From: an uncultured Gemmataceae bacterium
Lineage (GTDB): Bacteria > Planctomycetota > Planctomycetia > Gemmatales > Gemmataceae
Direction: 5' to 3'
Assembly (NCBI GenBank): GCA_963750165.1
Contig: CAVVPN010000003.1
Coordinates: forward strand, 416,001-480,000
Length of the DNA stretch: 64,000 nucleotides
Below are positions 4,568-56,857 of this stretch, piece by piece; position 1 is the stretch's first letter, and each line of letters begins with the position of its first letter. The position numbers were made by a program, and so were the translations under genes. Under the pieces are notes generated by a model. It searched no databases, was not told the origin of the DNA, and saw only the letters and a list, made by a program, of their open reading frames with translations.

Positions 4568-4706
4568 AAGGAATCTCCTTGAAAGGCGAAGGTTGGGGCC
4601 TGGGCCATTATGACAACCGCGGCGCCGTCGGCCAAGCCCTTGTCCGGTCGCTGCGATCTTCGCACAATGACGCAGACTACCCATTTTCACTCGGCAAGGG
4701 ATCACC

Positions 4707-14248: not shown

Positions 14249-14263
14249 TGAGGGCCGTCTTCC

Positions 14264-16932
14264 ATGATGCACTCGCTCGATCCGCTCTTCCGCCCCGGCA
14301 CGGTCGCCGTCATCGGGGCCAGTGCCACGACCGGCAGCGTCGGCAGTATCCTGATGCGCAACCTCATGGCGAACCCCTTCGGCGGTGTCGTCTTCCCGGT
14401 CAATCCCAAGCGCCGGTCGGTCCACGGCGTCTACTGCTACCCCGGCCTGGGGAGCATCCCCGAGCGCGTCGATCTGGCGGTGATCGCCACGCCGGCGGCG
14501 ACGGTGCCGGCCGCCATCCGCGATTGCCTCGACCATCACGTCAAGGCGGCCATCATCATCTCGGCCGGCTTCTCCGAGCTGGGGCCGCAGGGCAAGGCGC
14601 TGGAGGCCGAAATCCGCACGCTGGTGCAAGGCCGCATGCGCGTCATCGGCCCGAACTGCCTGGGCGTCATCCACCCGCCGAGCAACCTCAACGCCAGCTT
14701 CGCGTCCACGATGGCCCGCAACGGTAAGGTCGCGCTGCTCAGCCAGAGCGGTGCCATTTGCACGTCCATCCTCGACTGGGCCCGCGAGACGCTGGTCGGC
14801 TTCAGCAGCTTCGTCAGCGTCGGCGCCATGATGGACGTGGACTTCGCCGACCTGATCGACTACTTCGGCGACGACCCGCAGACGCGCAGCATCATCCTCT
14901 ACATGGAATCCATTGGCGACGTGCGCAAGTTCCTGAGCGCCGCGCGGGCGGTGGGGCGGACCAAGCAGATCATTGTCGTCAAGGCAGGCCGGCACGAGGC
15001 GGGGCGCGGGCGGCGGCGTCGCACACCGGAGCGCTGGCCGGCTCCGACAAGGTCTTCGACGCCGCCCTGCGCCGCGCCGGTGTGCTGCGCGTCACCACCA
15101 TCCCCGACCTGTTCCACATGTCCGAAATCCTGGCGATGCAACCGCCGCCGCGCGGCCCCGCCCTGGCCATCGTCACCAACGCGGGCGGCCCCGGCGTCAT
15201 GGCCACTGACGCCCTCATGACCAGCGGCGGTCAGCTCGCCACGCTCGGCCCTGAATCCCTGGCGGCGCTCAACGCGGCGCTGCCGCCGTTCTGGAGCCAC
15301 GCCAACCCCATCGACGTGCTCGGCGACGCCACGCCGCAGCGCTACCGCCAGGCCGTCGAGGTCTGCGCCAAAGATGCCGGCGTGCAGGGCTTGCTGATCC
15401 TGCTGACGCCGCAGGCGATGACCGACCCGACCGAGACCGCCCGCCAGCTGGCGCCGTTCGCGCACGTCGAGGGCAAGCCGGTGCTGGCGTGCTGGATGGG
15501 CGGCGCCGACGTGCGCCCTGGCAAGACCGTCCTCAGTGAGGCCGGCATGCCGACCTTCGATGCGCCCGAGGCGGCCATCCGGGCGTTCCTGCACATGAAC
15601 CAGTACCGCCGCAGCCAGGAACTGCTCTACGAGGCGCCCGAGGCGCTGCCCGAGGACTGGCGGCCGGATCAGGAGCGCGTCCGCACGATGTTCGGGCTGG
15701 CCCGCGCCGCCGGCCGGAAACTGCTCACCGAGGCCGAGGCCAAGTCGGTGCTGGAAGCCTACGGCATCCCGGTGACGCGCACGGTGGTCGCGGTCAGCGC
15801 GGACGCTGCCGTCGCGGCGGCGCAGCAGGTCGGCTACCCGGTCGTGCTGAAGCTGTACTCGCAAACCATCACGCACAAAAGCGATGCCGGCGGTGTGCAG
15901 CTCAACCTCACTGACGCCGCCGCCGTCCGCCAGGCGTTTCAGTTGATCGCCAGCAACCTGCAGCGCTACGACCCGAAGGCGGCCTTCGAGGGCGTGACGG
16001 TGCAGCCGATGGTGAAGGCGAAGGGTTACGAGCTGATCGTCGGCAGTTCGGTGGACGTGCAGTTCGGCCCGGTGATCCTGTTCGGCGCCGGCGGCGTGCT
16101 GGTCGAGGTGACGCAGGACAGCGCCCTGGCGCTGCCGCCGCTCAACCGCACCCTGGCCCGCCGGCTGATCGAACGCACGCAGATCGCGCAGGCGCTGCAC
16201 GGCGTCCGCGGTCAGCGGTCCATCGACTTCGAGCAGCTCGAAACCCTGCTCGTGCGCTTCAGCTACCTGCTCTGTGATTTCCTGGAGATCGCGGAGATCG
16301 ACATCAACCCGCTGCTGGCCAGCCCAGACGGCATCATCGCCCTGGACGCGCGCGTGGTGCTGGGCGCGCCGGACCAGCGGCCGCAGCTGGCCATCCACCC
16401 GCATCCGAACCAGTACACCACCCCGTTCCGCCTGCCCGACGGCACCGAGTTGCTGCTGCGGGCGGTCCGCCCCGAGGACGAGCCGCTCATCATCGAGTTC
16501 CACGGCACCCACTCCGAGCACACGCTGCGCATGCGCTTCTTCAGTCTGGTCAAAACGCTGTCGCGGGAAAGCCTGATCCGGCTGTGCCACCTGGATTACG
16601 ACCGCGAAATGGCCCTGGTGGCGCTGTCCCATGACGCGGACGGCAAGCCACACATCGCGGGTGTGTCGCGCTACTACGCGCACCCCGAGACGCGCGTCGC
16701 CGAGTTCGCGGTGGTGGTCGGCGATGCCTGGCAGGGTCGCGGCCTGGGGTTGCATCTGATGCGCAAACTGATCGAGGTGGCCCGCGAGCGCGGCGTGCGG
16801 CGGTTGGTCGGCGACGTGCTGCGCGAGAACACACCCATGCTGAATTTGGCCGAGGAACTTGGGTTCACGCGGCAGGACACGGCGGATGTGAACGTCGCGC
16901 GGGTGGTGCGCGACCTGGAACCCGGGGACTGA
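14264..16932 (+). CDS. bifunctional NDP-forming acyl-CoA synthetase-like / GNAT protein lysine acetyltransferase (Pat family); frameshift near 15003
   Basis: CoA-binding domain 'IGPNCLG' and 'SQSGA', '[10 protein letters not shown]', an ATP-grasp region and a C-terminal GNAT 'WQGRGLG'. The two ORFs join by one missing G in a G-run. Confidence 0.9.
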
Positions 16933-26575: not shown

Positions 26576-27835
26576 TCAGGAGCCCGGGCCAGTGACGTTG
26601 AGCAATTCGAGGAAGTCGAAGTCCGTGTACGTTCCGCCCGACGCCACGTGGACGTTGGAGATGGTGCCGGTGTCCGCCTCGGCCTGGGTCGCCGTGGCCT
26701 CGGCCGCCGGCACGGACGACTGTTCGTTGACGTAACCGAACACCGACACGGTCACCGTGTAGGTGCCCGGCAGCACGTTGGCGAAGCTGTAATTGCCCGA
26801 ACCGTCCGTGATGGTCGAAACGTTCACCGTGTGGCCCGTGGAGTCCATACCCACCAGCGTCACGGTCGCCGAATCCACCCCGGACTCGTTGGCGTTGATG
26901 GTGTCGCTGCCATCGTCCTGGAAGACGTTGCCGGACAGCGTGGCCGGCACGACCGGCGGCGGCGCCTGGCCGCCGATGTCCTGGCTCAGCAGCCGGTCCT
27001 GGGCGGTGTAATTGAGGTCGCTGGGCGCCGGGCTGAGATTGGTGATCGGCGCGCCGACGACGAAGTCCACCTGGTAGAAGTTGTTCGGCATCTGGATCGA
27101 CAGCGTGTGCTGGCCCGGGCCGAACGTGTCGGTCGCGACCGTGGTGAGGACCGGGTTGTTCGCGTAGGGGCCGACGGCCCTGGGGTTCGCCGGGGGGGAA
27201 GTTGTGTAGGCGACCAGCGACAGCGTCACGTTGGCCCCATGGGCCACTGTGAAGTGGGCCGTCACCGTGTCGCCGGCCTTGGTGTTGCCCCTGAGGTTGC
27301 CGTAGGTGTGCGTGCCACTGGCGTCCGTGACCGTGAAGCTCACCCTGGTCACGGCCTGGCGATTCAGCAGGTTGAAGTTGGCAAAATCATTGCCGGTGAC
27401 GCTCTGGCCCTGGGTCAGGTTGTCGGCGTAGCCCGGCGTCGAGGCGGGCATGGTGCGCACGGAGTTGAACGACGCGAACTCACGCACGAAATACGTGCCC
27501 GGGGCCAGGCCGTTGAAACTGTAGGCGCCGGTGGCGTCGGTAGTCTTCGCGGCCATCAGGCGGTCGCCGCCGTCCAGCACGCCGTCATGGTTGGTGTCCG
27601 CGACCAGGAACACCGGGACGCCACTCTCGCCGGCGCCCAGCGAGGCGGCGCCGTTGCCCGTCGTATCGACGAACACGTGGCCGCTGATGCTGCCGGTGGC
27701 CGGCGCGACGATGTTGGCCGGCACGCGCCGCTCCTCCAGGTTTTCCACGACCGGGCGGAAGGCGGACTTTTTGCTCACCGGGGCGTCAGTCTTTCCCCAC
27801 AGGCGGGCCAGAAGGGTTCCGAAAACGCGAGACAT
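26576..27835 (-). CDS. extracellular SdrD-B/Cna-like repeat protein, paralogue 1
   Basis: Leader 'FRPVVENLEERRVPA', SdrD-B-like motifs 'ISGHVFVD..GNG...GESGV.V.L' and 'TTDATGAYSFNGLAPGTY'. Ends FLE...TGPGS. Confidence 0.85.
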   Translation of the reverse strand: MSRVFGTLLARLWGKTDAPVSKKSAFRPVVENLEERRVPANIVAPATGSISGHVFVDTTGNGAASLGAGESGVPVFLVADTNHDGVLDGGDRLMAAKTTDATGAYSFNGLAPGTYFVREFASFNSVRTMPASTPGYADNLTQGQSVTGNDFANFNLLNRQAVTRVSFTVTDASGTHTYGNLRGNTKAGDTVTAHFTVAHGANVTLSLVAYTTSPPANPRAVGPYANNPVLTTVATDTFGPGQHTLSIQMPNNFYQVDFVVGAPITNLSPAPSDLNYTAQDRLLSQDIGGQAPPPVVPATLSGNVFQDDGSDTINANESGVDSATVTLVGMDSTGHTVNVSTITDGSGNYSFANVLPGTYTVTVSVFGYVNEQSSVPAAEATATQAEADTGTISNVHVASGGTYTDFDFLELLNVTGPGS

Positions 27836-27880
27836 GATAAGGGCTCCTCTGTTGGTGATGTGAGGGGGCGGGCCGTTGTT

Positions 27881-27908
27881 AACGTAGCTTACGCATCTTG
27901 TTTGTCAA
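27881..27908 (-). promoter_or_regulatory. promoter TTGACA-N16-TACGTT upstream of paralogue 1
   Basis: Minus strand reads TTGACA aacaagatgcgtaagc TACGTT. Confidence 0.65.
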
Positions 27909-27937
27909 CTAACTTACTTATCCAGTTTGCCAAAATA

Positions 27938-28261
27938 CTAACGGCTTCTTCTGGCAAATGAACCCGGTACCTGCCCCGAGCAGTTACCGAGGTTGGTTCG
28001 GAGCACGGCCCCGAATGTCACGAGCACGGTTGGGCGGCCGACGCCAGCAAGTAGCGGCTGACGGTGACCGGGTGCGCCGCTTGGGGTAGCGGAATGAATG
28101 ATGCCGACAAGGTTCGTGAAATCCCGGTCGCGGCCTCCGTCTGACGGCAACACGCTGCGGTTCGGGCGGTGCGCGCACCGAAAGGCGGGCCGCTTGCCCG
28201 CCAAAGCAGAGAGTTGATCGTTCTGCAGCCGCACCAGCAACGCTCGGACAATTCCGGACAT
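27938..28261 (-). pseudogene. remnant or leader-only fourth paralogue of the SdrD-like array
   Basis: MSGIVRALLVRLQNDQLSALAGKRPAFR matches the leaders of its neighbours (MSELMGTLLHRLQ..KKPAFRP). It has a GGAGAGG RBS and its own promoter; the rest is not homologous. Confidence 0.55.
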
Positions 28262-28344
28262 TGGCCTCTCCATGTGCTCCGCGGCCGGGCCTTAACACAC
28301 CGAACGGGTGGTGCGTTCACGGGGCCCGGTCTTAGGTCGAGGGA

Positions 28345-28372
28345 ATCGTAGCTTAACCTCCGCGCTTGTCAA
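28345..28372 (-). promoter_or_regulatory. promoter TTGACA-N16-TACGAT
   Basis: Minus strand reads tgttaactttt TTGACA agcgcggaggttaagc TACGAT. Confidence 0.65.
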
Positions 28373-28452
28373 AAAAGTTAACATCATGATTTTGCTGCTT
28401 TTATACAGGACCAAAGCGCCAACGTTCGTTTACTTTTTGCACCGAAATGCGA

Positions 28453-28484
28453 CGAACCCGACGCGCTGGCGCGTCGGGTTCGTG
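28453..28484 (-). terminator. probable terminator hairpin after paralogue 2
   Basis: acgaacccgacgcgc-tg-gcgcgtcgggttcgt, followed on the minus strand by a weak U-tract. Confidence 0.55.
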
Positions 28485-28535
28485 AATAGTTTCTCTGTCG
28501 AAATCATGTCGTGAGCGTCCGAGTCCCGCGGACGC

Positions 28536-29762
28536 TCACGAGCCAGGACCGGAGGGCGGCGCTTCCAGGAAATTAAACCCGGTGTCGGTGGCGCCCGCCG
28601 TCACGACGATGTTGGAAATGACGCCGTTGCCCGCCGTGCCGTTGCCCGGTGGCGCGGTCGCCTGCTCGTCGGTGCTGCCGGGCGCGGAGACGGTAAGCGT
28701 GTAGGTGCCCGCCGCCAGGTTGGTGAAACTGTAGCCGCCGTTGGCGTCCGTCGTGACCGTGAGGTTCACCGCATATCCCTGGGAGTCGGTGCCGGTCAAC
28801 GTTACCGTCGCCCCGGCGTATCCTGAGTCCCCGGCGTCCTGCACCCCGGTGCCGTTGCAGTCGTTGGTGACGGTGCCGGACAGCGAGGCCGTGGCCGGCG
28901 GCGCCACTGGCTGAGTGCCGCCGTTGTCCTGGCTCAGCAGCCGCCCCTGCGCGCTGTAGAACAGGTTGCTCCCCGCCGGACCGAACTGGGTGATCGCCGC
29001 GCCCACCACGAAATCCACCTCGTAATAGTTGCCGGGCAGCTGCGCAGTGAGGGTGTGTTGCCCAGGCCCGAACGTCTGCGTCATGGCCTGCGCGGCCACG
29101 TCCTGGCTGGCGGTACTGGTGTCGAAGGTCGGGCCGACGGTGTTGTAAGCGACCAGCGTGACGGTCGCGCTGCCGGCCTGTGCTGGGACGCTAAAGTTGG
29201 CGGTGATCGTGTTGCCCTGCTGGGTCTGGCTGTGCAGGTTGGTAACGGTGGTCTGGGTGCCGCTGGCGTTCGTGATCGTGTAGCTGACGCCGGTGACGGC
29301 GGACGTGTTCGGCTTCCGAAAGTTGGCGAAGTCCTCGCCGGTGACCGCCTGGCCGGCCGCCAGGTTGACCGTGTAGGAGGAATTCAGCAGCGGGACGGTG
29401 CGCACGTAGCCGTTCGGCACGCTCTCCTGGACGACATAGGAACCCGCGGGCAAACCGGCGAAGGTATAGGAACCATCCGTGCCGGTGACCGTTGTGGCCG
29501 CCGGCAGATCGAGGATGTTGAGCAGGCCCAGGACGCCGGTGTGCTCCTGGTAGAGCGACACTTGAGCGCCGGCCTGACCGGCGCCGAGCGCGGCGGCGCC
29601 GTTGCCGGTCGTGTCGAGGAAGACGTGGCCGCTGATGCTCGCCGGCACACGCCGGTCCTCCAAGCACTCCAGGGCAGGGCGGAAGCTGGACGGCTTGCGC
29701 GGCAGGCGGGTGGTAGACTTCCCCCACAGGCGGGTCAACAAACTGTTGACGGGACGGGACAT
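28536..29762 (-). CDS. extracellular SdrD-B/Cna-like repeat protein, paralogue 2
   Basis: Leader 'FRPALECLEDRRVPA' and the same three-domain layout. Ends FLEAPPSGPGS. Confidence 0.85.
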   Translation of the reverse strand: MSRPVNSLLTRLWGKSTTRLPRKPSSFRPALECLEDRRVPASISGHVFLDTTGNGAAALGAGQAGAQVSLYQEHTGVLGLLNILDLPAATTVTGTDGSYTFAGLPAGSYVVQESVPNGYVRTVPLLNSSYTVNLAAGQAVTGEDFANFRKPNTSAVTGVSYTITNASGTQTTVTNLHSQTQQGNTITANFSVPAQAGSATVTLVAYNTVGPTFDTSTASQDVAAQAMTQTFGPGQHTLTAQLPGNYYEVDFVVGAAITQFGPAGSNLFYSAQGRLLSQDNGGTQPVAPPATASLSGTVTNDCNGTGVQDAGDSGYAGATVTLTGTDSQGYAVNLTVTTDANGGYSFTNLAAGTYTLTVSAPGSTDEQATAPPGNGTAGNGVISNIVVTAGATDTGFNFLEAPPSGPGS

Positions 29763-30094
29763 CAAGGACTCCTGGGTTGAAAGAAGGTGAGTGGGTTGAA
29801 CTGAACCAAACAGTAGTGTGGTTGAAGGTGTGTGGCGGGTTGATCCGTTGGGGAACACACCTCGTGCGGTGGTCTCGGGCGGCGGCCCGAAGTTGTGAGA
29901 CCTCGGGGTCGCCCTCCTCAAGTCAAACGGCTTCGGCCGGGCTCACCCGCCAGATGAATTTTGCAGAAATGTGCGGAACGATCAGGCAGAAATGACGCGG
30001 GCCTGGCCGGCGGACACTCGGTTTCCCGAGCGCCCGTCGGCCAGGCCGTGATGCGACCACCAGCGGAGAACTGGTCAGCGCACTCCGCGAGCAC

Positions 30095-31319
30095 TCAGGA
30101 GCCCGGACCGGACATGGTGGGGGGCAGTTCCAGGAAGTTGTAGCCCGTGTCCGTGGCCCCGGAGGTCACGACGATGCTGGTGACGGTGCCGGTGCCCGCG
30201 GTGCCGGTGCCCGGCGGAGCAGTCGCCTGCTCGTCGGTGTAACCCATCTGGCTGGCGGAGACGGTGACCGTGTAGGTGCCCGGCCGCAGCCCGGTGAACA
30301 GGTAATTGCCGTTCGTGTCCGTTGCGACGGACACGTTCACCACCTGGCCCAGGTCGTTGGTGCCCGTCAGCGTCACGGTTGCCCCGGTGAGGCCGGTGTT
30401 CGGCATCATGCTGGCGCTGTTGTCGCTGGTGACGGTGCCGGACAGCGAACTGAGTGCCGGCGCCACGGTGCCGCCGTTGTCGGCGCTGAGCAGCCGGTCC
30501 TGAGCGCTGTAGAACATATTACTCCCGGCCGGCCCGAGTTGTTGAATGGCCGCGCCCATCACGAAATCAATCTGGTAATAGTTCTGCGGCACCTGGACCG
30601 TGAGCGACTGCGGCCCCGGGCCGAACGTGCCGGAGACGATCTCCACGGGCGTCTGCTGACTGGCGGTGTTGGCGTCGAATGATGAGCCCGGGGCGTCATA
30701 AGCGACCAGGCTAACGGTCACGTTCGAGGCGGTCGGGGCGACCGTGAAATTGGCGGTGACCGTGTCGCCCTGCCGGGTCTGGCCGCGCAGGTTGGTGACG
30801 GTGGTCTGCGTGCCGTCAGGGCTCGTGATCGTGAAGCTGATGTTGCTCACGACGCTGGTGTTCAGTTCCTGGAAGTTTGCGAAGTTCTGGCCGCTGACGG
30901 CCTGGCCAGCGGCCAGGGTCTCGGTCAAGTAAGAACTCGCCGTGGTCGGGAGGGTGCGCACATAGTTGCTCGGCACACTCTCCTTGACGAAGTAGGTGCC
31001 CGCGGCCAGGCCGGTAAACGAATAGGAGCCGTCCGTGGCAGTGGTCTTCGTGGCCACCATCGGGTCCGCGGAGTCGAGGACGCCGTTTTGGTTGGTGTCC
31101 GCGTACAGATGCACCTGGACGCTGGCCTGGCCGGCGCCGAGCGAGGCGGCGCCGTTGCCCGCCGTGTCAATGTAGACGTTGCCAGCGATGCTGGCGGTGT
31201 TCGCCGGCACGCGCCGGTCCTCCAGGTACTCCAGGCCAGGGCGGAAGGCCGGCTTCTTGCGCCGGGGTCGTTTGGCGAGTCTGCAGACGATGCAACAACG
31301 TTCCCATCAATTCGGACAT
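30095..31319 (-). CDS. extracellular SdrD-B/Cna-like repeat protein, paralogue 3 (one extra C near 31265)
   Basis: ATG 31319 with an AGGAGG RBS. Removing one C gives MSELMGTLLHRLQTRQTTRRKKPAFRPGLEYLEDRRVPA. Ends FLELPPTMSGPGS. Confidence 0.85.
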
Positions 31320-35909: not shown

Positions 35910-38900
35910 TCAGCGCCAGGCCGCGTACCAGGTCATGCTCTGGTAGTCGCGCACGAACCCCGCGTTTTCCAGCAATTCCCGCCCCGCCGTCGCCGTCACC
36001 GGCTGGCCGTTCCACGCGGCGACGGTGAGCCGGTGGCGCACGTCGCGGCGCTGGTCGCGACTCAGGATGCTCGGCAGACACGCCACCGCCGCGGCCAGTT
36101 CCTCGCGGCTGGCGCTGGCCAGGGCAGTCAGGCGTTCGCCACGTTGCTCGATCAGCAGCACCGGCCGGCCGGCGCACTGCACCAGCCAGTTGCCGGGCCG
36201 CCGGCTCAGCGACCGACTGCCGCCGTCCAGCAGCGCCACGTCGAAGGGGGCGCCGGCGCCGTAGAGGTTGGCCGGGTCCAGGCTGTGCAGCAGCAGTACC
36301 GGGGCGGCGACGCTGGACGGCAGCGCGACCTCCTGCAGCAGCTGGGCCGCCTCCGGCAGCGCGAACTGCGCCCCGCTCAGGCCCTCGGCGAAGTAGCCGC
36401 GGCGCACCGCCCCTGCCAGTTCCATGCGGTTGAGCACCTCGTACAGGACGCGCCACGGCAGCAGCCACGGGTCCATCTGCGCCAGCTCGCGCGCGGCGAC
36501 GCCGTAGCGGTGCAGCAGCAGCGTCGCCTGGTACACGGCCAGCGCCTCGGTGTCGGGACTGCCCCACGGTAGCAGGGACCAGCGGCCCTCCGGTCGGAAC
36601 TGCGTCCGCCGCGGCGCCGCCCGCCAGCGGCCCACGGCGGTGGTGGTCGCCGCAGCCGGCGCCGGCGCCGCGTTGCCGGTGCGGATCACGTCGAAGCGGT
36701 CGTTGCTGACCAGGCCGCGGCGCAGCAGGTCCGCCAGCGCCGCCCGCACAGCGCTCGGCGCCAGCGTGGTCTGCTGGGCCAGGTCGGTCACGAACAGCGC
36801 CCCGCGCTGCCTCAGACATTCGCGCATGCGCTCCGCCGCCTCGTCGAGCGGCGTCTCGGTGGCCGCGGCCGGCGCCGGCAACTCCGCCAGACGGTCGCGC
36901 GGCAGGAACGCCAGTGACCCCAGGCTGTCACTGCCGCCCTGGCACGCCCACGTCCAGGCGCCGCCGGCCAGGCACTCATCCAGCCAGCGCGGCTCAAAAT
37001 CGCTGACGCGCGCCGGCAGCAGCGTCTGCTCCCACAATTCCGCGGGGGCCAGCACGCCCTGCAACCGCAGCAGCACATCGTTCAATCCGTCCACGCCAGC
37101 GGTGCGTGTCGCAGGGTGGACGGCCTGCCAGCGGGCGACGAAGTCCGCGAACTGTGTCGGTGGCACCGTGACGATCTCGCGGCGCAGCAGGGCCAGTGTG
37201 CTGCGCTGCAACTGCTCCAGGTTGCCGGGGGCCGCCCACTGCGCCGGCTCCGCCGTGGTCGCGGCCGGCACCGGCACCAGACGGCCGCTCTGCGTCCACT
37301 CCTCCAGTTTGTGCTTCGCCCAGCCCGGATCGAACGGATAGCGGCCCAGCACGTCCGCCAGCGCCACCAGGGCGTGCGTCTCCAGAAAGCGGAACAGAAT
37401 CACCTGCGCCGCCGCGTTCGCCGCGCCGGGGTCCGATCCGAACGCCGCGTCGTACAGCTCGCGTTCCTCGGCCAGAATCCAGCGCTGCGGCTCGCGGACG
37501 CGTGGCAGTTCGATGGTCGTGACGACACCGCCTGCCTCCAGTTCGCCGAGGAACGCCACCATCGGGCCGTGCAGATCGCTCGCGGCCAGGTCGCCGAGCC
37601 GCCGCAGCCATTCCGCCATTTCCACAGCGGTGCGCGGCGGCTGGCCCAGGCCGCGCAACCGGCCCTCGACCTGCCGCACTGCCCGCGGGTCCAGCAAGGG
37701 GCCGTGCTTGCCCGGCGACAGGATTTGATCGAGCAACTGCTGATCCAGCTGTGGCGCCGGGCCGCGTTCGGGCTCGGTGCCGTCGTACTGATACATATAA
37801 GCCATCGTGAATGCGAACAGCAGGCTCGCGGCGAACGGCGACGGGCTATCGAGCTGCTGTGTCACCACCTCGACACTGCCGGCGCGCACGTCCGCCAGCA
37901 ATTGTTGCAGCCGGGACAGGTCGAGGTGATCGTGCAGACATTCGCGGAACGTCTCGGCGATGACCGGGAAGTCGGCATGCTTGCGGGCCACCTGCAACAG
38001 ATCGCGACCGCGCAGGCGCTGCAACCACAGCGGAGCGCGACGGCCGGCGGTACGCGGCATCAGCAGCGCCCGCGCCGCGTTCTGGCGGAAGCGCAGCGCG
38101 AACAGCGGACTGTCGGCCAGCTCCGGCAGGATGAGTTCTTGCAGGTTCTCGGGCGTCAGGCCGTCGAGCAGGTCGAGCACGGGTTCGGTGGAATCGGTCA
38201 GGCGGAGGAGGATACCGTTGTCATGGTGCAGACACTGCGGCGCGTAGCCGAGCCGCTGCCGCAGCCGTGCCTCCAGCGCCAACCGCAACGCCAGGTGCAG
38301 CCGGGCGCCGAACGGGCTCAGCAAGACCACCTGCCAGTCGCCGAGCTGATCGCGGCTGGCCTCGATGACGATGGTTTTATCGGTCGGTAGACAGTTGCAG
38401 CGGTCCAGCTGGCGGTGGATGTGCATCCGCAGACTCTTCGCGGCGGGCAGGTCCATCAGGTACTCGCGCTGCAGCCAGTCGAGGGTGGATTCCTTTTGCG
38501 GAATGTCGCCCTCCGGCGAGCGGCGCGGCGTCAGCCCGCCGGTGCTTGGAAGTACCGGCGGGCTGACGCCGCGCCGCTCGCCGCAGAAAGAGGCATCTTC
38601 GGAGCGCAACCGCTCCGCCAACTCGCGCAGGAAGCGCCCGATCGCCAGGCCCAGGTCGAAACTGCGTCCCACCTGCTCGCCGCGCCAGAACGGAATCAGC
38701 GCCGGCGCCCCCTCCGCCGGCGTCACAATGACGCGATCCGCCTCGATCTGCTGCACGCGCCAGCTGTTCGTGCCCAGCAAAAAAGCGTCGCCGATGCGGC
38801 GCTCGTAGATGAACTCCTCGTCCAGTTCGCCGAGGCGCGTGCCGTCCGGCGTCAGCACCGCGTACTGGCCGGTGTCCGGGATGGTGCCGCCGCCCTGCAG

Positions 38901-40470
38901 CGCCAGGGATTGACTGCCCGGCAGCGGCAGCAGCCGGTTGTGAACGCGGTCCCAGCTGACGCGCGGTTGCAGCGCCACCAGCGTCGAGGTCGCCAGGGCC
39001 GGCCCCTCCTCGGCGCGGGGCGAAGCGGTAGCGGCCCGAGATCATCTCCAGCACCGCCTCGAACGCCGCCGGCGCCAGGTCGCGGAACGGATACGCCCGC
39101 CGCACCAACGTGTACAGCGCCGGTACGTCCCACGGCTCCACCGCCACCATTGCCACAACCTGCTGCGCCAGCACGTCCAGGCAATTCTCCGGCACGTGCA
39201 GCGCCTCGACGCGGCCGGCGGCCATCTCGCGCGCCAGCACCGCCTGTTCGAGCAGGTCCATCAGCGTCTTGGCGATCAACCGGCCCTTGCTCTTCTGGCC
39301 GACGAGGTGCCCCGCCCGGCCGACGCGCTGCAGGCCGCGCGCGACGTTGCCCGGCGACTCCACCTGACACACCAGGTCCACCGGCCCCATGTCGATGCCG
39401 AGTTCCAGCGACGCGGTCGCGACCACCGCCTGCAAAACGCCGTCCTTCAGCGCCTGCTCAATCTGCTGCCGCACCTCCAGCGCCACGCTGCCGTGGTGCG
39501 CCTGCGCCCGCGGTGTCTCCGGCTCGTCGTAGGCGGCCAGCACGTTCGGGTTGCCGGAATGGGCCGGGTCGCCCTCCTGGTTCAAATGGGCGGTGATGCG
39601 CTCGACACCGCGGCGGTTGTTGGCGAACACGATGGTCGAACGGTGCTGGGCGATCAACTCCGCCAGCAGCCGGTAGATCGACGGCCAGACCGTCTTTTCC
39701 GGCAGCGGCCCGAAGTGCTCGACGGGGCTGAGCACACGCAGATCGAGGTCTTTCCGCAGCCCGGCGTCCACGACGGCGACCGGCCGCGGCGTCACGGTGC
39801 CGTCCGCGGCAATGTCGCGGCCGCCAAGGTAGTCGGCGACCATTTCCAGCGGCCGCTGCGTCGCGGACAGGCCGATGCGCACGAAGCCGCGCGGGTTCAG
39901 CGCCTGCAACCGCTCCAGCAGCAGCGCCAGGAAAACGCCGCGCTTGTTCGGACACAGGGCGTGAATCTCATCGACGATGACGTGCGTCACGCCCGTCAGT
40001 GTTTCACGGGCGCGCGCGGTCAGCAGCAGGTGCAGCGATTCCGGCGTGGTGATGAGCACGTGCGGCGGCCGGCGCAGCAGCCGCTGTCGCTCCGCGGCGG
40101 GCGTGTCGCCGGTGCGCACGGCCACGTCAATCGGCGGCAACTCCTGACCGAGTTCCTGCGCCGCCGCGGCGACGCCGGCCAGCGGCACCTGCAAATTGCG
40201 GTAAATGTCGTTGTTCAGTGCCTTCAGCGGCGAGACGTACAGGACGCGGACGCCGCGCGGCAGTTCGGGTTGACGCCAGAGGTGATCGAGGCAGGCGAGG
40301 AACGCGGCCAGCGTTTTGCCGGAGCCGGTCGGGGCGAGGATGAGCGTGTTCTGCCCGGCGGCAATGAGCGGCCAGCCCTGACGCTGCGGCGGCGTTGGTT
40401 CGCCGAGCGCGGTACGGAACCAGTGCCGGACGGGCGGCAGAAACAGATCGAGCGGGTCAGCGTTACTCAT
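35910..40470 (-). CDS. lhr: Lhr-like DEAD/DEAH-box helicase (long form with C-terminal winged-helix domains); frameshift near 39015
   Basis: 'PTGSGKT', 'SPLKALNND', 'TTPESL', DEIH, 'GLSAT', 'HHGS', 'SLELGIDMG', 'QRVGRAGH', 'GGTIPDTGQY', 'PSPFA'. Confidence 0.9.
38514..38583. repeat. perfect 30-bp-arm palindrome inserted in-frame in lhr
   Basis: cggcgagcggcgcggcgtcagcccgccggt, a 10-nt loop, then the exact reverse complement. Encodes GERRGVSPPV...TGGLTPRRSP on both strands. Confidence 0.9.
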
Positions 40471-41329
40471 GCGGATCGCCCTTGCCGTCGAAAATGGCGG
40501 CGACGGATTGTGCGACGGTGACGCAGTAGCGGTCCAGGTCCAGGTCGTCCGGGTCGGTGCCGAACGGCTCCTCCACCACGGAATCGACCAGCTCGACGCC
40601 GAGTATCGGCGCGAAGATCAGCAGCAGCATCGGCACGCCCCAGAAACCCAGCTCGGGCAGGCTGAGCCAGGGCGCCAGCAGGATGTTCGCCGCCAGGCCG
40701 GCGCGGATCAGCGCCTTGTACGATGGCGAAATGGCGGTGTTGCGGATGCGCTCGCAGGCGCCGCACACGTCCAGCAGCGCCCGGGCGTGAACGTCGAGCA
40801 CCAGTACGGTGCTGCCGTCGATCAGGCCGCGCTGGTGCCAGTCGGCCAGGCCCGTCAGCAGCCGGCCGGCCAGGTACAGCGGCACGTGGGCCGGCGTCTC
40901 CGGTTCGTGCTCGAAGCCGGCGATGTCCTGCAGCCGCGCCCCGCCGCGCAGGTGCTGCTCGAGCGCCTCCGCGAAACCCGTCAGCACCGCCGGCAACCTG
41001 GCCTCGGTCACGACCGCCGCGGGCAGGTAGCCGCGAAGCTTCCAGGCCAGGTTGCGCAGCTCGTTGATGAGCTGGCCCCAGAGCTGGCGACCTTCCCACC
41101 AGCGGTCGTAGGACGCCCGGTTGCGGAACGCCAGCAGCAGGCCGAGAATGAAGCCCTCGGCCACCGCCCCTTGCAGACCCAGTTCGACACGCGGCAGTCC
41201 GTACCAGTTAACAACGAAGGCCACCGCGAAACAGTACACGGCGATGGCGGCCAGCCAGAAGCGCAGTCGCCGGTAGACCCACACCAGGGTGTCCAGCAAC
41301 GGGTGCTCGTTCGTCGGGCCGCCCCCCAC
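40467..41329 (-). CDS. bestrophin-family anion channel (YneE-like)
   Basis: 'LGLLLAFRNRASYDRWWEGRQLWG', 'GACERIRNT', 'EEPFGTDPDDLDLD'. Confidence 0.9.
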
Positions 41330-49172: not shown

Positions 49173-50084
49173 TCACGCCAGCAGCCAGCGCAGCAGCGCC
49201 TTCTGCGCGTGCAGCCGGTTGCCGGCCTGCTGGAAGACAATACTGCGGTCGCCATCGATCACCTCGCCGGTGACCTCTTCGCCGCGGTGCGCCGGCAGAC
49301 AATGCATCACCCGTGCGTGCGGCGGCGCCAGCGCCAGCAACTCCGCGTTCACCTGATACTGCTGGAACTCGCGCAGTCGCCGCTCGCGCTCCGCTTCCTG
49401 GCCCATGCTCGTCCACACGTCCGTGTAGATCACGTCCGCGGCGCCGACCGCGTGCCGGGGGTCGCCGTTCTCGATCAACTCGCCCCTGGGCACATGGCGG
49501 TGGTACATCTCCAGGAAGGGCGCGTCAAAATGGTAGCCGTCCGGCGCCGCCAGAATGAAGCGCATCCCCAGTTTGCCGCAGCAGACTGCCACGGAGCGGG
49601 CCACGTTATTGCCGTCGCCCACGAACACCAGCGTCCGGCCAACCACCGAGCCGAACACCTCGTGCACCGTGTACAGGTCCGCCAGCGCCTGGCAGGGGTG
49701 CGCGTAGTCCGACAGGCCGTTGATGACGGGGCAGCAGGCATGCTGCGCGAACTGCTCGACCGTGGCGTGCTGGAAGGTGCGCAGCACCACCGCATCGACG
49801 TATTCGCCGAGGGTGCGGGCCACATCCGCGACGCTCTCGCGCGCCCCGAGGCCCACCTCGCCGCCGGACAGGAAAATGCTGGAGCCGCCCAGCTGAGCGA
49901 TGGCGGACTGGAAACTGACGCGCGTCCGCAGCGACGGTTTCTCGAAGATCATCCCGAGCACGCGACCCTGCAAGACCGGCGTCACCTCGCGCCGCCGCTG
50001 GGCCTCCTTCAGCCGCTGCGTTTCGCGCAGCAGCAGGCCAATCTCTTCGCCGTCCACCTCAAGCAAGTCAAGGAAGTGACGCAT
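49173..50084 (-). CDS. argF: ornithine carbamoyltransferase
   Basis: 'FEKPSLRTR', 'HPCQALAD', 'GDGNNV', 'YTDVWTSMG', 'HCLPAHRG'. Confidence 0.95.
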   Translation of the reverse strand: MRHFLDLLEVDGEEIGLLLRETQRLKEAQRRREVTPVLQGRVLGMIFEKPSLRTRVSFQSAIAQLGGSSIFLSGGEVGLGARESVADVARTLGEYVDAVVLRTFQHATVEQFAQHACCPVINGLSDYAHPCQALADLYTVHEVFGSVVGRTLVFVGDGNNVARSVAVCCGKLGMRFILAAPDGYHFDAPFLEMYHRHVPRGELIENGDPRHAVGAADVIYTDVWTSMGQEAERERRLREFQQYQVNAELLALAPPHARVMHCLPAHRGEEVTGEVIDGDRSIVFQQAGNRLHAQKALLRWLLA

Positions 50085-50101
50085 GGTGCGTGGTCCGTGA
50101 C

Positions 50102-50222
50102 CAGAGGTCAGAAGTCAGAGGTCAGAAGTCACAGGTCAGAGGTCAGCGTTGGTATTTCTGCCGCTTGCGGCTTAGCGCTGACTTCTGACCTCTGACCTCT
50201 GACTTCTGACCTCTGACTTCTG
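50102..50222. repeat. TCAGAGG/TCAGAAG heptamer array with an inverted array, enclosing a GCCGCTTGCGGC element
   Basis: About 6 units on each side; internal ctgccgcttgcggcttagc matches the 26492-26552 family. Confidence 0.9.
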
Positions 50223-50230
50223 GGATCTGG

Positions 50231-51430
50231 TTACGTCTTGGAAGTCAACACCTCATCAAGAATGTCGCAGCCCTGGTGCAACTGCTCGTCCGTGAGGGTC
50301 AGGGCCGGCAGCAAGCGCAGCACCGTCCCGTGCGTGCAGTTGACGAGCAGCTGGCGGCGCAGACACCGCTCCACAAACGGCGTGCCCTCGACCGCCAGCT
50401 CCACCCCGATCATCGCGCCTTTGATGCGGATGTCGGTGATGAGCGGGCACCGGGCCCGCAGTGCCTCGAAGCGCTGACGGAACGCCGTGCCGATCTGCTC
50501 CGCCCGGGCCAGCAGGCCCTCCGCCTCGATCGTTTCAATGGTCGCCAGGGCCGCCCGGCAGGCAATCGGATTGCCGCCGAACGTCGCCGCGTGCGTGCCC
50601 GGCTTCAGATACTCCGCGACCTGCGGCCGCGCCACCAGGCCGCCGCAGGCGATGCCGCCCGCCACCGCCTTGGCCAGCGTCATCACGTCCGGCAGCACGC
50701 CCCAGTGCTGGTGCGCGTACCACCGGCCCGTGCGGCCCATGCCGCTCTGCACCTCGTCAAACATCAACAAAAGCTTATGTTGGTCCGCCAACTCCCGCAA
50801 ACCTTCCAGGTAGCCCCGCGGCGGCAGATGGATGCCGCCCTCGCCCTGGATCGGCTCCAGCAGAATGGCGCAGGTCTCGTCGTCGATCAGTTGCGTCGCC
50901 GCGTCCAGATCGCCGTAGGGGGCGTAGCTGAAGCCGGCCAGCAGCGGCTCCAGGCCCTGATGGTACTTCGGCTGGCCGGTGGCACTGAGTGCCCCGAGAG
51001 TGCGGCCGTGGAAGCTGTTCAACATGGAAATGATCTTGTAGCGACCCGGCTTGCCGTACAGCCGCGCCAGCTTGATCGCCGCCTCGACCGCCTCGGTGCC
51101 GCTGTTGCAGAAGAAGCAGCGGCCGTCGAAATCGGTGCGTTCGCTCAGCGCCTGCGCCAGCCGGCCCTGCGCCTCGGTGTACCAGGTGTTCGGCACGTGG
51201 ATCAGCTCGGCCACCTGCTCACGCACCGCCTCGACCACGCGCGGCGGACAGTGGCCCAGCAGGTCGCAGCCCCAGCCGGGGAAGAAGTCAAGGTAGCGCT
51301 TGCCCTCGGCGTCCCAGACCCAGGAACCTTCGCCGTGCGTCAGCGCCACCGGGTAGCGCGTGTAGTTGCCGATGACGTACCGCTTGAAAAGGTCGATGAT
51401 CTCGGCGGAAGTAGTCGTTTTCGTGCTCAT
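50231..51430 (-). CDS. argD: acetylornithine aminotransferase
   Basis: 'NSGTEA', 'FHGRT', 'EPIQGEGG', 'FDEVQSGMGRTG', 'TLAKA', 'TFGGNP'; arg operon context. Confidence 0.92.
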   Translation of the reverse strand: MSTKTTTSAEIIDLFKRYVIGNYTRYPVALTHGEGSWVWDAEGKRYLDFFPGWGCDLLGHCPPRVVEAVREQVAELIHVPNTWYTEAQGRLAQALSERTDFDGRCFFCNSGTEAVEAAIKLARLYGKPGRYKIISMLNSFHGRTLGALSATGQPKYHQGLEPLLAGFSYAPYGDLDAATQLIDDETCAILLEPIQGEGGIHLPPRGYLEGLRELADQHKLLLMFDEVQSGMGRTGRWYAHQHWGVLPDVMTLAKAVAGGIACGGLVARPQVAEYLKPGTHAATFGGNPIACRAALATIETIEAEGLLARAEQIGTAFRQRFEALRARCPLITDIRIKGAMIGVELAVEGTPFVERCLRRQLLVNCTHGTVLRLLPALTLTDEQLHQGCDILDEVLTSKT

Positions 51431-51444
51431 GGTTCAGTTCCGGA

Positions 51445-51505
51445 AAGATGAAGGATGAAGGATGAATGGAAGCCATTCATCCTTCATCCTTCATCCTTCA
51501 TCCTT
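51445..51505. repeat. GATGAAG heptamer array with an inverted array
   Basis: gatgaaggatgaaggatgaa ... ttcatccttcatccttcatccttcatcctt. The same family occurs at 62768-62830. Confidence 0.9.
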
Positions 51506-52382
51506 TTTGAAGGACGATCTCGGTGCCGACGCCGCGGTCGGTGTAGATTTCGAGCAGCAGCGAGTGGCGCACGCGGCCGTCGATGATGTGCGTCTTGCGG
51601 ACGCCGCCGCGCAGGCTGTCCAGGCACGCCTCCACCTTGGGGATCATGCCTTCGTCGATGACCCGGCGGGCGATCAGGTCCTGACACTCCGCGGCGTCGA
51701 GACCGCGGACCAGCGAGTCGGGGTCGCGGCGGTCGCGCAGGATGCCGGGCGTGTCGGTGAGCAGCACGAGCTTTTCGGCGCCGAGGTGGGTGGCGACCGC
51801 GGCGGCAGCGGTGTCGGCGTTGACGTTCAGCCAGCCGCCGGCCTCGTCCTGGGCCACGGACGCGATCACCGGCACCACACCGGCAGCGCAGAAGTCGCGG
51901 AGCAGGTCCGTCTCGACGCGCGTGACGCCGCCGACCCGGCCAAGGTCGATCGGCTCGCCGCCAGGGTTGGGCAGCGTCAGGCGTTCGCCGTGCAGGTACT
52001 GGAAGGAGCCGAGGTGGGCGCCGACAGCGCGGCCGCCGAGTTGACGAATCTGGGCCTCGATGGCAGCGTTGGTTTCCTTGAGCAGCACGCGAACCACGAT
52101 GTCGAGCGTGGCGTCGTCGGTGTAGCGCCGGCCCTGGACCTTGCGCGGTTGCAGACCGGCGTCAGCCATGGCGCGGTCGATGGCCTTGCCGCCGCCATGC
52201 ACCAGGATCGGCCGCATGCCAACCGTTTCCATGAAGACGACATCTTGCAGTGTGGCGCGCAGCGCTTCGGGCTCTTCCATGGCGCTGCCGCCGAGTTTGA
52301 TCACCGTCAGCCGATCGCGGAAGTTGCGAATGTAGCTGAGCGCTTCGATCAGGGTTTCCGCTTTGCGGATGGCGTTGTCCAT
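51498..52382 (-). CDS. argB: acetylglutamate kinase
   Basis: 'VIKLGGSAM', 'VHGGG', 'GRRYTD', 'NVNADTAA', 'GMIPKV', 'IIDGR'. Confidence 0.96.
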   Translation of the reverse strand: MDNAIRKAETLIEALSYIRNFRDRLTVIKLGGSAMEEPEALRATLQDVVFMETVGMRPILVHGGGKAIDRAMADAGLQPRKVQGRRYTDDATLDIVVRVLLKETNAAIEAQIRQLGGRAVGAHLGSFQYLHGERLTLPNPGGEPIDLGRVGGVTRVETDLLRDFCAAGVVPVIASVAQDEAGGWLNVNADTAAAAVATHLGAEKLVLLTDTPGILRDRRDPDSLVRGLDAAECQDLIARRVIDEGMIPKVEACLDSLRGGVRKTHIIDGRVRHSLLLEIYTDRGVGTEIVLQKG

Positions 52383-52588
52383 GAGCCCACGTCGCGGGAG
52401 GGCATGCGGCCTGGGCGGCCGTGGATTAAAAGATTGATTGTAGATGGTGCCACGTCGCTGTCAATCTTCCAGTCGTTTTTTCACGCGCTTGCTTGTCGCC
52501 GCGTGCGGCCCCTGGTACGCTGGCGGAAGATCGTGCCCCGCGCTTGCGCGTCGGGCAGCCTGGATCTGCAGAAGAAAGGTGGTGAACC

Positions 52589-53584: not shown

Positions 53585-54834
53585 ATGCAAGTCCCCGATC
53601 CTGTGCCGTCGCGCAGCCCCTGGTCGCCGATGGGCTACCGCGTCGTGACCGTCGCGGAGGAGACCGGTCCCCCGCAGCCGTGTCCGCAGCCGCCGGCCTC
53701 CCTGAGCTACCGGGTCAACCCGGTGGGCGAGGAAGACGTGCCTCCCCGGCCGCGCGCGGCGGAGCGCTTCCCAGGACCGCCGCGCCGGCTGCTGCGGAAA
53801 CCGCTTCCAGAGAAGTCGCAGTCCAAACCCCTGTGGTGGGCGGTTGTCCTGTTCGGCTCGTTCATGGCCCTGTGCCTGATTGCGCTGTTGATCGGCTCGT
53901 CTGACCGCCGATCCGCCCCGCCGCCGGTCGGATTCGAACCTGAGGTGGTGATAAACGATGTCCGCGGCCCCGAGGTGCGCATCCCCCATGTGCCCCCCGA
54001 GAAGGATGACAAGCCTGTCGCCCAGGTGCCCTTCCCGGACATCCAGGCCGCTGCCGAGAAGAAGGCCGGGCCGCAATTCTTCGGCTTCCCCGCCGCGGAG
54101 GTGTGCAAGAACGACCCACCGCGGCCAGCGCCCGGCGGCCGTGAGACGTTCGGCACCGCCGTGGAGTTCGCCCGCAACCCGCAGGAGGCGGCCCGGCAGG
54201 CGGCAGCGGCTCGCAAGCTCACCTTCCTGCTGCACGTCTCTGGGAACTTTGAAGACGCCGGCTTCACCTGAAACAACGCCGAGCGCTCCGTGTGAACGCC
54301 CTGACCCAGCCCCAGGTCGGACAGTATCTGAACCGTCATTTCGTGTCGGCCTTCCAGAAGGTCGCCACCTTCCAGATCAACGGCGCCGCCAAGCAGGGCG
54401 GCAACGTCGCCGCGTATTTCTGCACACCCGAGGGCCGCGTCCTGCACGCCATCGCCGGCCCGGTGGACGCCGCGACCTTCCTGCGCGAGGCCCGCTGGGC
54501 CAACGAGACGTATCAACTGGCGCTGCTGGACAACCCTGGGCCGCTGCAAGTGCAAGGCTTTTTCCGCAAGGCCCACCTCGACCGGCTGAAACTGGAGCGG
54601 GGGGAACTGCGCCTGGCTGAGAACAAGCTGCCGGCCACGGACGCCGTCAGTGGCAAATTGCTGGATCAGCTCCTGGTGCAGAACCAGAACCTGGGCCTGA
54701 ACAACTCGGGCAAAGTTCACCTGATGCTGACGGTGGGGCCGCTGGCCCGGATCGATCAGGTGTATCGCGTGGTGTTTGAACGCATCCTGGAGGAGAAGAT
54801 CACGACCAACCCGGTGGCCGTGAACGGCAAGTAA
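53585..54834 (+). CDS. membrane-anchored thioredoxin-like protein, selenoprotein N-like, with putative Sec (TGA 54269-54271) and a 1-nt deletion near 54283
   Basis: ORF 53585-54271 ends KLTFLLHVSGNFEDAGFT-TGA-NNAE; ORF 54292-54834 continues (L)RVNALTQPQVGQYLNRHFVSAF...YFCTPEGRVLHAIAG. TM segment PLWWAVVLFGSFMALCLIALLIG. Confidence 0.65.
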
Positions 54835-54903: not shown

Positions 54904-56692
54904 TCAGCGCTGTGGTGCAGCGACCGTCCCCAGATCGTAGCAAGCAATCTCCCGGTCGTTGCGCACGTACAGGCGGCCGTGGGCGACCACCGGATGATTC
55001 CAGGTTTTGCTCGTGAAGACCGCCAACCGTCCCCGTTCCTCGTGCCGCTTCGGGTCAGCCGCCAGCAGCACCACCTCCCCCTGTTCCGACTGCACCAGCA
55101 GCAGCCGCTGCTCCGCCAGCAGCGCCACCTGCCCGTAACCGTAGCGCCCCTGTTTCCAGCGCCGCTTGCCCGTCTCCAGATCGACACAGCAGAACAGATG
55201 GCCGTCGAAGCCGAAGGCGCAGCCGTCCTGCACCACCAGGTCGTTGAACGATGGCCGCAGGTGCCGCGACGACCAGCGCCTCCGCCGTCCGCCAGCCGGT
55301 GCCATCGCGGGTCACCTCGATCAGCACGGTGTCCGCTTCCATGCCGCCCAGCACCAGGATCTGCGACGTGCCGACGAGTTGCGGTTGCAACGAGCGCGGG
55401 CTGCCCCCCGGCAGCGCGTGCTCCCAGAGCACCGCGCCGGTGGCTGGCGCGAGGGCGCTCACGCCGCGGTCGCTGATGAACAGCACCTGTTCCTGCCCGT
55501 CAAGGCGGAAGAGCTGTGGCGAGACGTAACTGTGCTTGCCCACGTCGGCCGTCCACGCCGGCTCGCCCGACACCGCCTGATAGGCGAGCAGGTTTTTCGA
55601 TCCGGAGCCGCCGGCAAAGACCACGACCACCCCCTGCACCACCAGCGGCGAACTGGCGAACCCCCAGATGGGAGCGGTGGCGCCGGCCTCGGCGGCGATG
55701 TCGCGCGTCCAGTGCCGGGTGCCGGTGGCGGCGTCGAAGCAGTTCAGGATGCCGGTCGCCCCCAGGGTGTAGAGCCGGCCCTCCGCGAACGTGGGCGTGG
55801 CCCGCGGGCCGGGGCCGCCCTGACCGTCCGAGAACCGCGCCGCGTCGTGGTGCGCCCACATTTCCGCGCCGGTGTCGGCGTCCAGGCACACGACTGCTTC
55901 CTCCTGGCCGCGCTGCTCCTGCGTGAACAACCGGTTCCCGACCACCGCAACCGAGGACCACGCCGGACCGATGCGCTGCTTCCAGAGCAGCCGCGGCGGC
56001 TGGGCGTCCCAGTCGGTGGCAATGCGGACGCCGCGCACCACGCCGTCGCGCTCCGGGCCGCGGAAGCCGGGCCAGTCCTCCGGCCGGAGATTCAGCGCTT
56101 GAGCGCTGTCGGCGGTGTGGGCGTCGCCGGCGACGTACTCTTGCTCGGCGGTGGGGTTCCAGCGCCAGTGGAAGGCGGGCCGGTAGTCGCCGGTGTCGGG
56201 ATCGCCTTCCAGGCCCTCCATGCGGAGCGTCAGGAAGGCCGACCAGGTTAGCAGCAGCGCCGTCATCAGCCCATACCGGCGCGTGGTTGGGGACGCCCAG
56301 CGGGTGAGCACCAGGCCCACGGCCCAGGCGGTAAGCGCGTACGGCAGCCCCAGCATCAATATGATGCCCGCCGGCACGCTCGGGTCCGCGAGGAGCCAGG
56401 CCAGCAACCCGCCGGCCGTCGCGGTGCCGAACACCAACAGCCGATCCCGCATGGGGATGCGCCGGCTGAAGAACCAGACGCCCAGGAACAGCAGTGCCAC
56501 CAGGAGGCCGGCGCCCATGCGCATCAGGAAGCGCGTGAACCCCTGCAGTTCCATCCAGCCCGTGACGAAAAAGCACCCCCAGTACACGGCGACCAGCGCC
56601 ACCGCCGGCCAGATGCGCGGGCGCTGCGGCGTGGCGGCGGGCAGCCGTTCGGGTTGCGGGACAGGCGCCAGCGGAGACACGTCAACCGTCAT
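54904..56692 (-). CDS. membrane-anchored PQQ-binding-like beta-propeller protein; frameshift near 55280
   Basis: Several N-terminal TM helices, 'DWPGFRGPERDG', 'GPRATPT', 'WGFASSP', C-terminal 'KTWNHPVVAHGRLYVRN'. Confidence 0.85.
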
Positions 56693-56857
56693 GCGTGGAA
56701 CCTCCAGCGTTCAAGGTGGGGCGACGATTCGATGCGACGGTGACCGCCACTTGGCGGGCATCGTCGCGGCAGGGTATATTGCCCTGGGCTTCCCGGAAAC
56801 GGTAGCCCGGATTTAATTGTACGTGCAGTCTAAACAAATTCCCGTGGGCGTCAAGTG

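Follow-up and report, generated by a model that had tools for sequence, protein, structure and literature searches.

Two open reading frames (ORFs) adjoin each other on the forward strand, between positions 53585 and 54834, of a 64,000-nucleotide stretch of DNA from an uncultured Gemmataceae bacterium (GenBank assembly GCA_963750165.1, contig CAVVPN010000003.1, positions 416,001 to 480,000; this whole stretch is called the window below). The first of them stops at a TGA, and the question raised by this locus is whether one is dealing with two small genes or with the halves of a single gene whose internal TGA is read as selenocysteine (Sec). An earlier note on this DNA had proposed one membrane-anchored selenoprotein of about 416 codons that gene callers would split, and this proposal is borne out by the conservation of the TGA, a hairpin behind it, homologues with cysteine at the same place, the Sec machinery of the genome, and the many database entries that begin right behind the TGA. 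The two ORFs are a single gene for a membrane-anchored thioredoxin-like protein with an internal TGA, and, judged from comparative sequence data, this TGA almost certainly encodes Sec. We hold with high confidence the complete reading, i.e., one gene of about 416 residues, Sec at 54269-54271, and a break of the reading frame in the window that is most likely an error of the assembly.

The upstream frame, read here from position 53585 (it is open also from an ATG at 53423), terminates with ...LTFLLHVSGNFEDAGFT (...KLTFLLHVSGNFEDAGFT) at the TGA at 54269-54271; its end reads ...SGNFEDAGFT-TGA, and the codons that follow are AAC AAC GCC GAG. The downstream ORF lies in the -1 frame, where it is open from 54253, has its listed start at the GTG at 54292 and its stop at the TAA at 54832-54834, and reads ..LRVNALTQPQVGQYLNRHFVSAF.. 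in between. Since simple readthrough of the TGA in the upstream frame yields nonsense containing nine further TGAs, joining the halves requires both the decoding of the TGA and one added base. The close orthologue P0156, a database protein with a tryptophan (W) at the position of the TGA, is colinear with both halves; its residue 67 corresponds to the end of the upstream half and its residue 74 to the beginning of the downstream half, which is 69% identical to residues 74-254 without any stops (the identity spans 182 residues). Between ACC (54268) and CTC (54286) the window possesses 17 nt where P0156 has six residues, corresponding to 18 nt, in agreement with the one-nucleotide gap between the ORFs that had been noted before. 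The features of the locus are as follows.

53585 to 54834, forward strand: whole gene of about 416 codons, provided that the TGA is taken as Sec and the missing base is put back; translation possibly begins at the ATG at 53423 instead.
53840 to 53896, forward strand: predicted single N-terminal membrane anchor AVVLFGSFMALCLIALLIG, from hydropathy; preceded by the basic stretch RRLLRKPLPEKSQSK.
54137 to 54831, forward strand: conserved domain, consisting of a thioredoxin fold and a helical C-terminal part; broken by the Sec codon and the frameshift.
54269 to 54271, forward strand: in-frame TGA, candidate Sec codon, motif F-T-U-N-N-A; N-terminus of helix 1 of the thioredoxin fold.
54283 to 54284, forward strand: position at which one base is missing (GAG-CG, against GAG-GCG in homologues), causing a -1 shift of the frame.
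54283 to 54299, forward strand: hairpin resembling a Sec insertion sequence (SECIS), arms GCGCUC and GAACGC, loop CGUGU (54289-54293); covariation, and the bacterial SECIS (bSECIS) constraints stated in PMC13188914.
54286 to 54834, forward strand: downstream half, the piece that gene callers would list alone as a hypothetical protein; stop TAA at 54832-54834.

To follow the TGA in relatives, we searched 41 related genomes, the source genome included, with the downstream half. The family is present in 19 of the 41 (18 of the 40 relatives, 39 of which belong to the order of the window); by rank, it occurs in 14 of 24 genomes of the same family, in 4 of 15 genomes of the second family of the order, and not in the single genome outside the order. 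In each of the 19 loci found in other genomes, tblastn and a print of the frames place the two halves in one frame, separated by a single TGA at the same column, with the consensus ..HVSGnFEDpgFT-TGA-AAC-AAC-GCN-GAR-GCG-CTC-CGT-GTG... A pattern scan with one genome per species returned 189 related stretches, 80 of which were kept (planctomycete labels or evidently mislabelled metagenome-assembled genomes (MAGs)); all 80 carry the in-frame TGA at this column, and the frame shift of the window was found in none of them. The two sets have nine loci in common, so that together they amount to 90 distinct loci with the joined motif FT-U-NNAEALRVNAL and one TGA at the column, in frame in every case. 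Conservation of an in-frame TGA in 90 of 90 distinct loci is far beyond chance. More widely sampled, the family was detected in 2 of 200 other genomes from across the phylum, and a phylum-wide search with the Cys form (201 genomes) recovered TGA forms alone, in three genomes, and no DNA for a Cys form. Metatranscriptome contigs of relatives span the TGA region, which shows their presence in an RNA library and no more. Distant members occur in two other planctomycete families (L126, L128, L130, and L131, from genomes G144 and G165); they read GKT-U-(A/N)NAQA(L/F)RVGAL and are found in three copies per genome.

In the protein database the family comprises 665 cluster representatives at E <= 0.001. 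Twenty of the database proteins span the Sec column in a MAFFT alignment, and five of these have Cys there (P0040, P0054, P0108, P0137, and P0154). Two further spanning proteins have W at the column, which stems from a caller that read the TGA as tryptophan, and the others have Ser, Ala, Glu, Gly or a deletion, one of them being a frameshifted miscall. Among the 150 matches listed, most begin at query residue 84, i.e., at the GTG right behind the TGA, and the source names given for listed members are all "hypothetical protein."

These entries reflect the annotation by gene callers, according to which the TGA would be an ordinary stop and the downstream protein would start at the GTG at 54292 as a separate gene; in addition, TGA is the commonest stop in the window, where it closes 29 of the 49 open frames of at least 350 codons. 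Such a two-gene arrangement is nevertheless very improbable in view of the single frame with exactly one TGA in all 90 loci, of protein conservation that reaches and crosses the TGA, and of the Cys-column homologues, which are continuous proteins. Moreover, the thioredoxin fold needs strand 1, encoded upstream of the TGA, together with helix 1, encoded downstream of it; a membrane anchor or signal peptide is present on the upstream half only; and the GTG sits within a conserved hairpin.

This hairpin begins 11-12 nt after the TGA, and a further G-C pair that is frequent in homologues is formed by the very base that is missing in the window. Its paired cells amount to 87.8% on 20 sequences and 85.7% on 82 sequences; four of the seven pairs show compensatory changes, with changes on both sides in 37 cells (82 sequences). 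None of 500 shuffles reached the covariation score, and sliding the 3' partner lowers pairing to 26-60%. Columns 24 and 36 covary as synonymous third positions of Ala with Asn/Ser codons, and columns 27 and 33 as synonymous third positions of Leu with Val codons; constraint on the protein is therefore no explanation for this covariation. The bSECIS constraints given in PMC13188914 comprise a loop of 3-9 nt, a stem of 4-16 bp, a G in the first two loop positions, and a distance of 16-37 nt between UGA and loop. With its 5-nt loop CGUGU, a stem of 6-7 bp, and a UGA-loop distance of 18 nt, the geometry of the hairpin lies within these constraints, and the G at loop position 2 is present in 82 of 82 sequences. 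In the distant members L126, L128, L130, and L131, different codons form a perfect 7-bp hairpin (GCGCUCC-GGGUC-GGAGCGC) whose register is shifted. A possible lower stem (GCCGA/UCGGC), inspected by eye, was dropped because one of its columns is variable without covariation.

The source genome is equipped for Sec insertion. Its tRNA-Sec reaches 71.6 bits (cut-off 47) and is called tRNA-SeC with the anticodon TCA by ARAGORN, and selB (390 bits), selA (567.8 bits), and selD (286 bits) all exceed their curated cut-offs; the Sec machinery on which the earlier proposal depended is hence in place. Among the 41 related genomes, selA is above the cut-off in 39, namely in 19 of 19 with the family and also in 20 of 22 without it. 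A second member of the family is encoded on contig C12 of the source genome (939.7-940.8 kb, reverse strand); it is intact, contains the TGA and the hairpin, ends with a TAA stop, carries a signal peptide, and belongs to a second, paralogous clade that is described below.

Several observations weigh against our reading of the TGA. The core hairpin is weak: its median minimum free energy (MFE) is -6.4 kcal/mol, and 31 of 82 copies reach -7.5 kcal/mol or less, the stability threshold stated in PMC13188914, although this comparison sets a 22-nt core alone against a threshold meant for the whole predicted element. For the copy in the window the 22-nt core has an MFE of -3.1 kcal/mol, and one pair is a C.A mismatch in 46 of the 82 copies. 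No SECIS family of Rfam (E <= 1) was found in the locus with the window's gene region and in four homologous loci, where a chance miRNA row was the sole match. The Sec column is occupied by Ser, Ala, Glu or Gly in many homologues, so that part of the family is not redox-active. The gene neighbourhoods suggest no partner protein, since the best cluster of neighbours occurs in 10 of 80 loci. Lastly, both the presence of selenium in the protein and the redox chemistry proposed below are inferred.

The TGA does split the gene, as the earlier note had stated, but it is not the sole cause of the split: a one-base deletion 12 nt downstream of it breaks the frame as well, and this second break has no counterpart in homologues. 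The window reads GAG-CG-CTC where homologues read GAG-GCG-CTC. In the DNA alignment a one-base gap stands at column 21 in the window alone, and the deletion occurs in 0 of the 90 other loci. The position of this gap bears on the caveat, raised in the earlier note, that a single C missing before the TGA would join the ORFs and remove the need for Sec. Arithmetically, any single base added within 54253-54271 joins the frames; alignments with 19 and then with 82 homologous sequences, however, set the gap after the TGA, at column 21, and the window's TGA AAC AAC GCC GA is identical to the homologues. It is the G of GAG-GCG, next to 54283, that is missing, and we give practically no credence to a missing base in front of the TGA. 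Equally negligible in our view is a double programmed recoding, in which Sec would be inserted at the TGA and the hairpin would then stimulate a programmed -1 ribosomal frameshift. The hairpin does lie just downstream of the shift site, but no slippery heptamer of the type X XXY YYZ is seen in 54269-54286, a shift is needed in 0 of the 90 homologous loci, and other genes of the window are broken in a similar way.

For this last point we scanned all 278 six-frame ORFs of at least 110 residues in the window with Pfam for genes that are split. A large helicase of the Lhr type (35913-40617, reverse strand) is divided within its WH_Lhr domain, with profile positions 2-70 in the ORF at 38380-40617 and positions 77-166 in that at 35913-39041, which places a frameshift somewhere within 38380-39041. 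Similarly, a protein with CoA-binding, succinyl-CoA-ligase-like, ATP-grasp and GNAT (acetyltransferase type) parts (14252-16929, forward strand) is split between two frames; its Succ_CoA_lig domain is cut near profile position 95, with positions 2-97 in 14252-15217 and positions 93-138 in 14728-16929. The gene convergent with the selenoprotein gene and downstream of it, which codes for a membrane-anchored PQQ/BamB-like propeller (54907-56710, reverse strand), is probably split as well: the ORF at 55058-56710 ends in a tail rich in Ala, Gly, and Arg, and the one at 54907-55311, in another frame, has a typical propeller C-terminus. BLAST comparison of both pieces with an intact paralogue at 3242-4924 was blurred by the propeller repeats.

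We consider it likely that the missing G at 54283/54284 is an assembly error, and the organism therefore probably makes an intact protein. A 176-nt contig from a soil metagenome is identical to 54158-54303 (146 nt) except for a G inserted behind 54282. Against an artefact it has to be said that this soil contig has a depth of 2.4 and diverges from the window in its last 29 nt, so that it comes from a relative or is chimeric; that no public sequencing run holding the strain was found (best share 0.11); and that selA, selB, and selD were matched without stops, i.e., errors do not pervade the whole assembly. The lesion could also be genuine, in which case the selenoprotein family would be real, the copy in the window would be a recent pseudogene, and the paralogue on contig C12 would carry the function. 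The deletion does stand in the deposited sequence, no run that contradicts it is at hand, an intact second member exists in the genome, and the deletion costs the hairpin one base pair, weakening it to the MFE given above. We regard a pseudogene as unlikely all the same: there is a single lesion, and the remaining frame is open and as similar to the orthologue as described above; at least two more genes of these 64 kb are cut within one domain, suggestive of an assembly prone to insertions and deletions; the near-identical environmental contig has the G; and the shift is seen in none of the 90 other loci. In a further genome, a MAG (G004), the copy at locus L016 has a C-terminal part reading ...NQGESNTCWRALAGEDRGEG... 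where relatives have NQGRVHxLLAAH..., which looks like a frameshift of another assembly.

Turning to the protein that the joined gene would encode, the single N-terminal membrane anchor claimed before is recovered as AVVLFGSFMALCLIALLIG, residues 86-104 counted from the start at 53585, with a mean Kyte-Doolittle hydropathy of 2.64. Since the basic stretch RRLLRKPLPEKSQSK precedes this anchor, the C-terminal domain should face the periplasm according to the positive-inside rule. The family consists of two clades. In orthologues of the window type the N-terminus is long and variable and contains a single hydrophobic anchor, whereas members of the second, paralogous clade possess signal peptides instead of the anchor, plus a proline-rich insertion. 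The twin-arginine translocation (Tat) signal model TIGR01409 matches one member of the signal-peptide clade, P0002 (L009, 1270-1350; start MRRRHFLKACGG), (18.0 bits; cut-off 16.7), so that export in a folded state may apply to one or more selenoproteins of the family. Apart from this Tat signal, no Pfam or NCBIfam domain family was found on the two halves, on full-length orthologues with the TGA taken as U, or on the Cys homologues.

Invariant in the protein alignment are T47-U48-N49-N50-A51, R55, Q77, the blocks KQGGNVA, YFC, and GPV, E121, W124, and H150, and 17 of 17 sequences share the motif F-T-U-N-N-A. For the nearest intact orthologue, L002 (234 residues), an AlphaFold model built on an alignment of 17 sequences has a predicted local distance difference test score (pLDDT) of 90.5 and a predicted template modelling score (pTM) of 0.89. 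It displays a thioredoxin fold of the DsbD-gamma/DsbH/AGR/UAS type, in which residue 48 (Sec), after strand 31-39, directly precedes helix 49-56 and hence sits at the N-terminus of helix 1. The nearest known folds are of the Thioredoxin_7/Thioredox_DsbH type and comprise the gamma domain of DsbD (1vrs), DsbH (2ju5), proteins of Bacteroides (3f9u), M. mazei (3ira), and Brucella (7tkv), AGR2/AGR3, ERp19, and the UAS domains of UBXD7 and FAF1; searches of the PDB by sequence or profile gave no significant match. The Protein Atlas, queried with a natural Cys homologue, returned unnamed bacterial clusters at 0.90-0.91 and Thioredoxin_7 clusters at 0.77-0.79. Judging from the model, the thioredoxin fold of the family is of the same subtype as that of Thioredoxin_7/Thioredox_DsbH (PF13899, PF03190), but neither Pfam family is matched even at E <= 10, and the window family differs from them by T-U-N-N-A in place of CxxC, a longer loop between strand 1 and the reactive residue, and an added conserved helical C-terminal part.

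For the topology, chemistry, and substrates of the protein we propose the following scheme. The hairpin starting 11-12 nt behind the TGA would recruit SelB carrying Sec-tRNA(Sec). The product would begin with an N-terminus in the cytoplasm and cross the membrane once by its anchor; a variable linker would then lead to a thioredoxin-fold domain facing the periplasm, with the helical part behind it. Sec would occupy the place of the first cysteine of CxxC at the N-terminus of helix 1, and since its motif T-U-N-N-A contains no second cysteine, the protein is probably a one-selenol oxidoreductase that acts on periplasmic substrates. In such an enzyme Sec might attack a disulfide, a sulfenic acid or a peroxide, and a thiol from outside the protein would then resolve the selenenyl-sulfide or selenenic intermediate. 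Cys99 of the YFC block was considered as a resolving cysteine within the protein, a role that is unlikely for it; homologues whose active site has Ser, Ala or Glu retain this residue, and the Cys form P0137 lacks it. No conserved neighbour gene emerged from the 80 loci; clusters larger than the best one mentioned above consist of the gene itself plus shadow frames.

As far as our searches reach, the comparisons describe a real and uncatalogued family of thioredoxin-fold selenoproteins. A 2026 review lists 119 prokaryotic selenoprotein families (PMC13188914), and no row of the table in which they are set out has a T-U-N-N-A or UxxA motif; the family is thus absent from this catalogue, to the extent of that table, and from Pfam and NCBIfam. 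Like the catalogued selenoproteins with a thioredoxin fold, the protein of the window would have Sec at the redox position, a hairpin behind the UGA, and Cys homologues; unlike them, it is not matched by their Pfam/NCBIfam models and lacks a second redox cysteine in its motif. One "hypothetical" planctomycete selenoprotein candidate, which may or may not be a member of the window family, is contained in Table S9 of PMC4807772. Since the Sec codon has the appearance of a stop, the annotation of bacterial selenoproteins is systematically wrong, and here a whole family has been cut in two and labelled "hypothetical protein." The family would add to the bacterial selenoproteome an exported or membrane-anchored one-selenol thioredoxin fold with the unusual site T-U-N-N-A, and the two ORFs of the source genome ought to be entered in its annotation as a single selenoprotein gene.

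The earlier note had likened the protein to human SELENON (SelN). According to the description in PMC12839072, SelN is a single-pass type II membrane protein whose thioredoxin-like Sec domain faces the lumen of the endoplasmic reticulum (ER), and its redox motif is SCUG. The predicted layout of the window protein resembles this, with an N-terminal anchor and an extracytoplasmic thioredoxin-like Sec domain, when topology is taken from hydropathy and the ER lumen is equated with the periplasm. It differs from SELENON in the motif, which is F-T-U-N-N and not S-C-U-G, and in size and N-terminal region. No EF-hand, the calcium-binding motif that precedes the redox domain in SELENON, was found, as no Pfam family matched the upstream half at E <= 1 or the full-length orthologue P0003 at E <= 10. 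Around Sec, the residues presumably align with SELENON block by block with no gap; an LNExF block and an L-R pair that follows Sec by 6-7 residues belong to this presumed match. We put forward only tentatively, and with some doubt, that the planctomycete family might be a bacterial homologue of the catalytic thioredoxin-like domain of SELENON with Sec at the homologous position. A search for longer database proteins returned P0154 alone, which says little either way on SELENON, and our literature search brought up nothing relevant that links selenoprotein N with planctomycetes or with the UAS domain, or selenoproteins with Gemmata. The families shared with eukaryotes that are enumerated in PMC13188914 are SelD, GPX, deiodinase-like, SELENOW-like, and MsrA, and SELENON is not named in that enumeration. 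If the homology were true, SELENON would join this short list, and a human disease protein of unclear mechanism would gain a prokaryotic relative and a tractable model.

Two further architectures were seen among the database proteins. P0154 (589 amino acids, from a metagenome) has an N-terminal caspase-like Peptidase_C14 domain (PF00656) fused to the thioredoxin-like domain, with Cys at the Sec column. In P0029 and about 20 similar proteins of about 455 amino acids, which represent a third architecture, the ORF behind the TGA extends into a C-terminal region of about 270 residues without a Pfam match.

Among the other genes of the window, a cluster for arginine biosynthesis is situated upstream of the selenoprotein gene on the reverse strand (49176-52460) and comprises an ornithine carbamoyltransferase (49176-50114), a class III aminotransferase (50234-51433), and an amino-acid kinase (51501-52460). 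Three consecutive genes on the same strand (26579-31306) encode proteins with SdrD_B, SpaA, and CarboxypepD_reg repeats.

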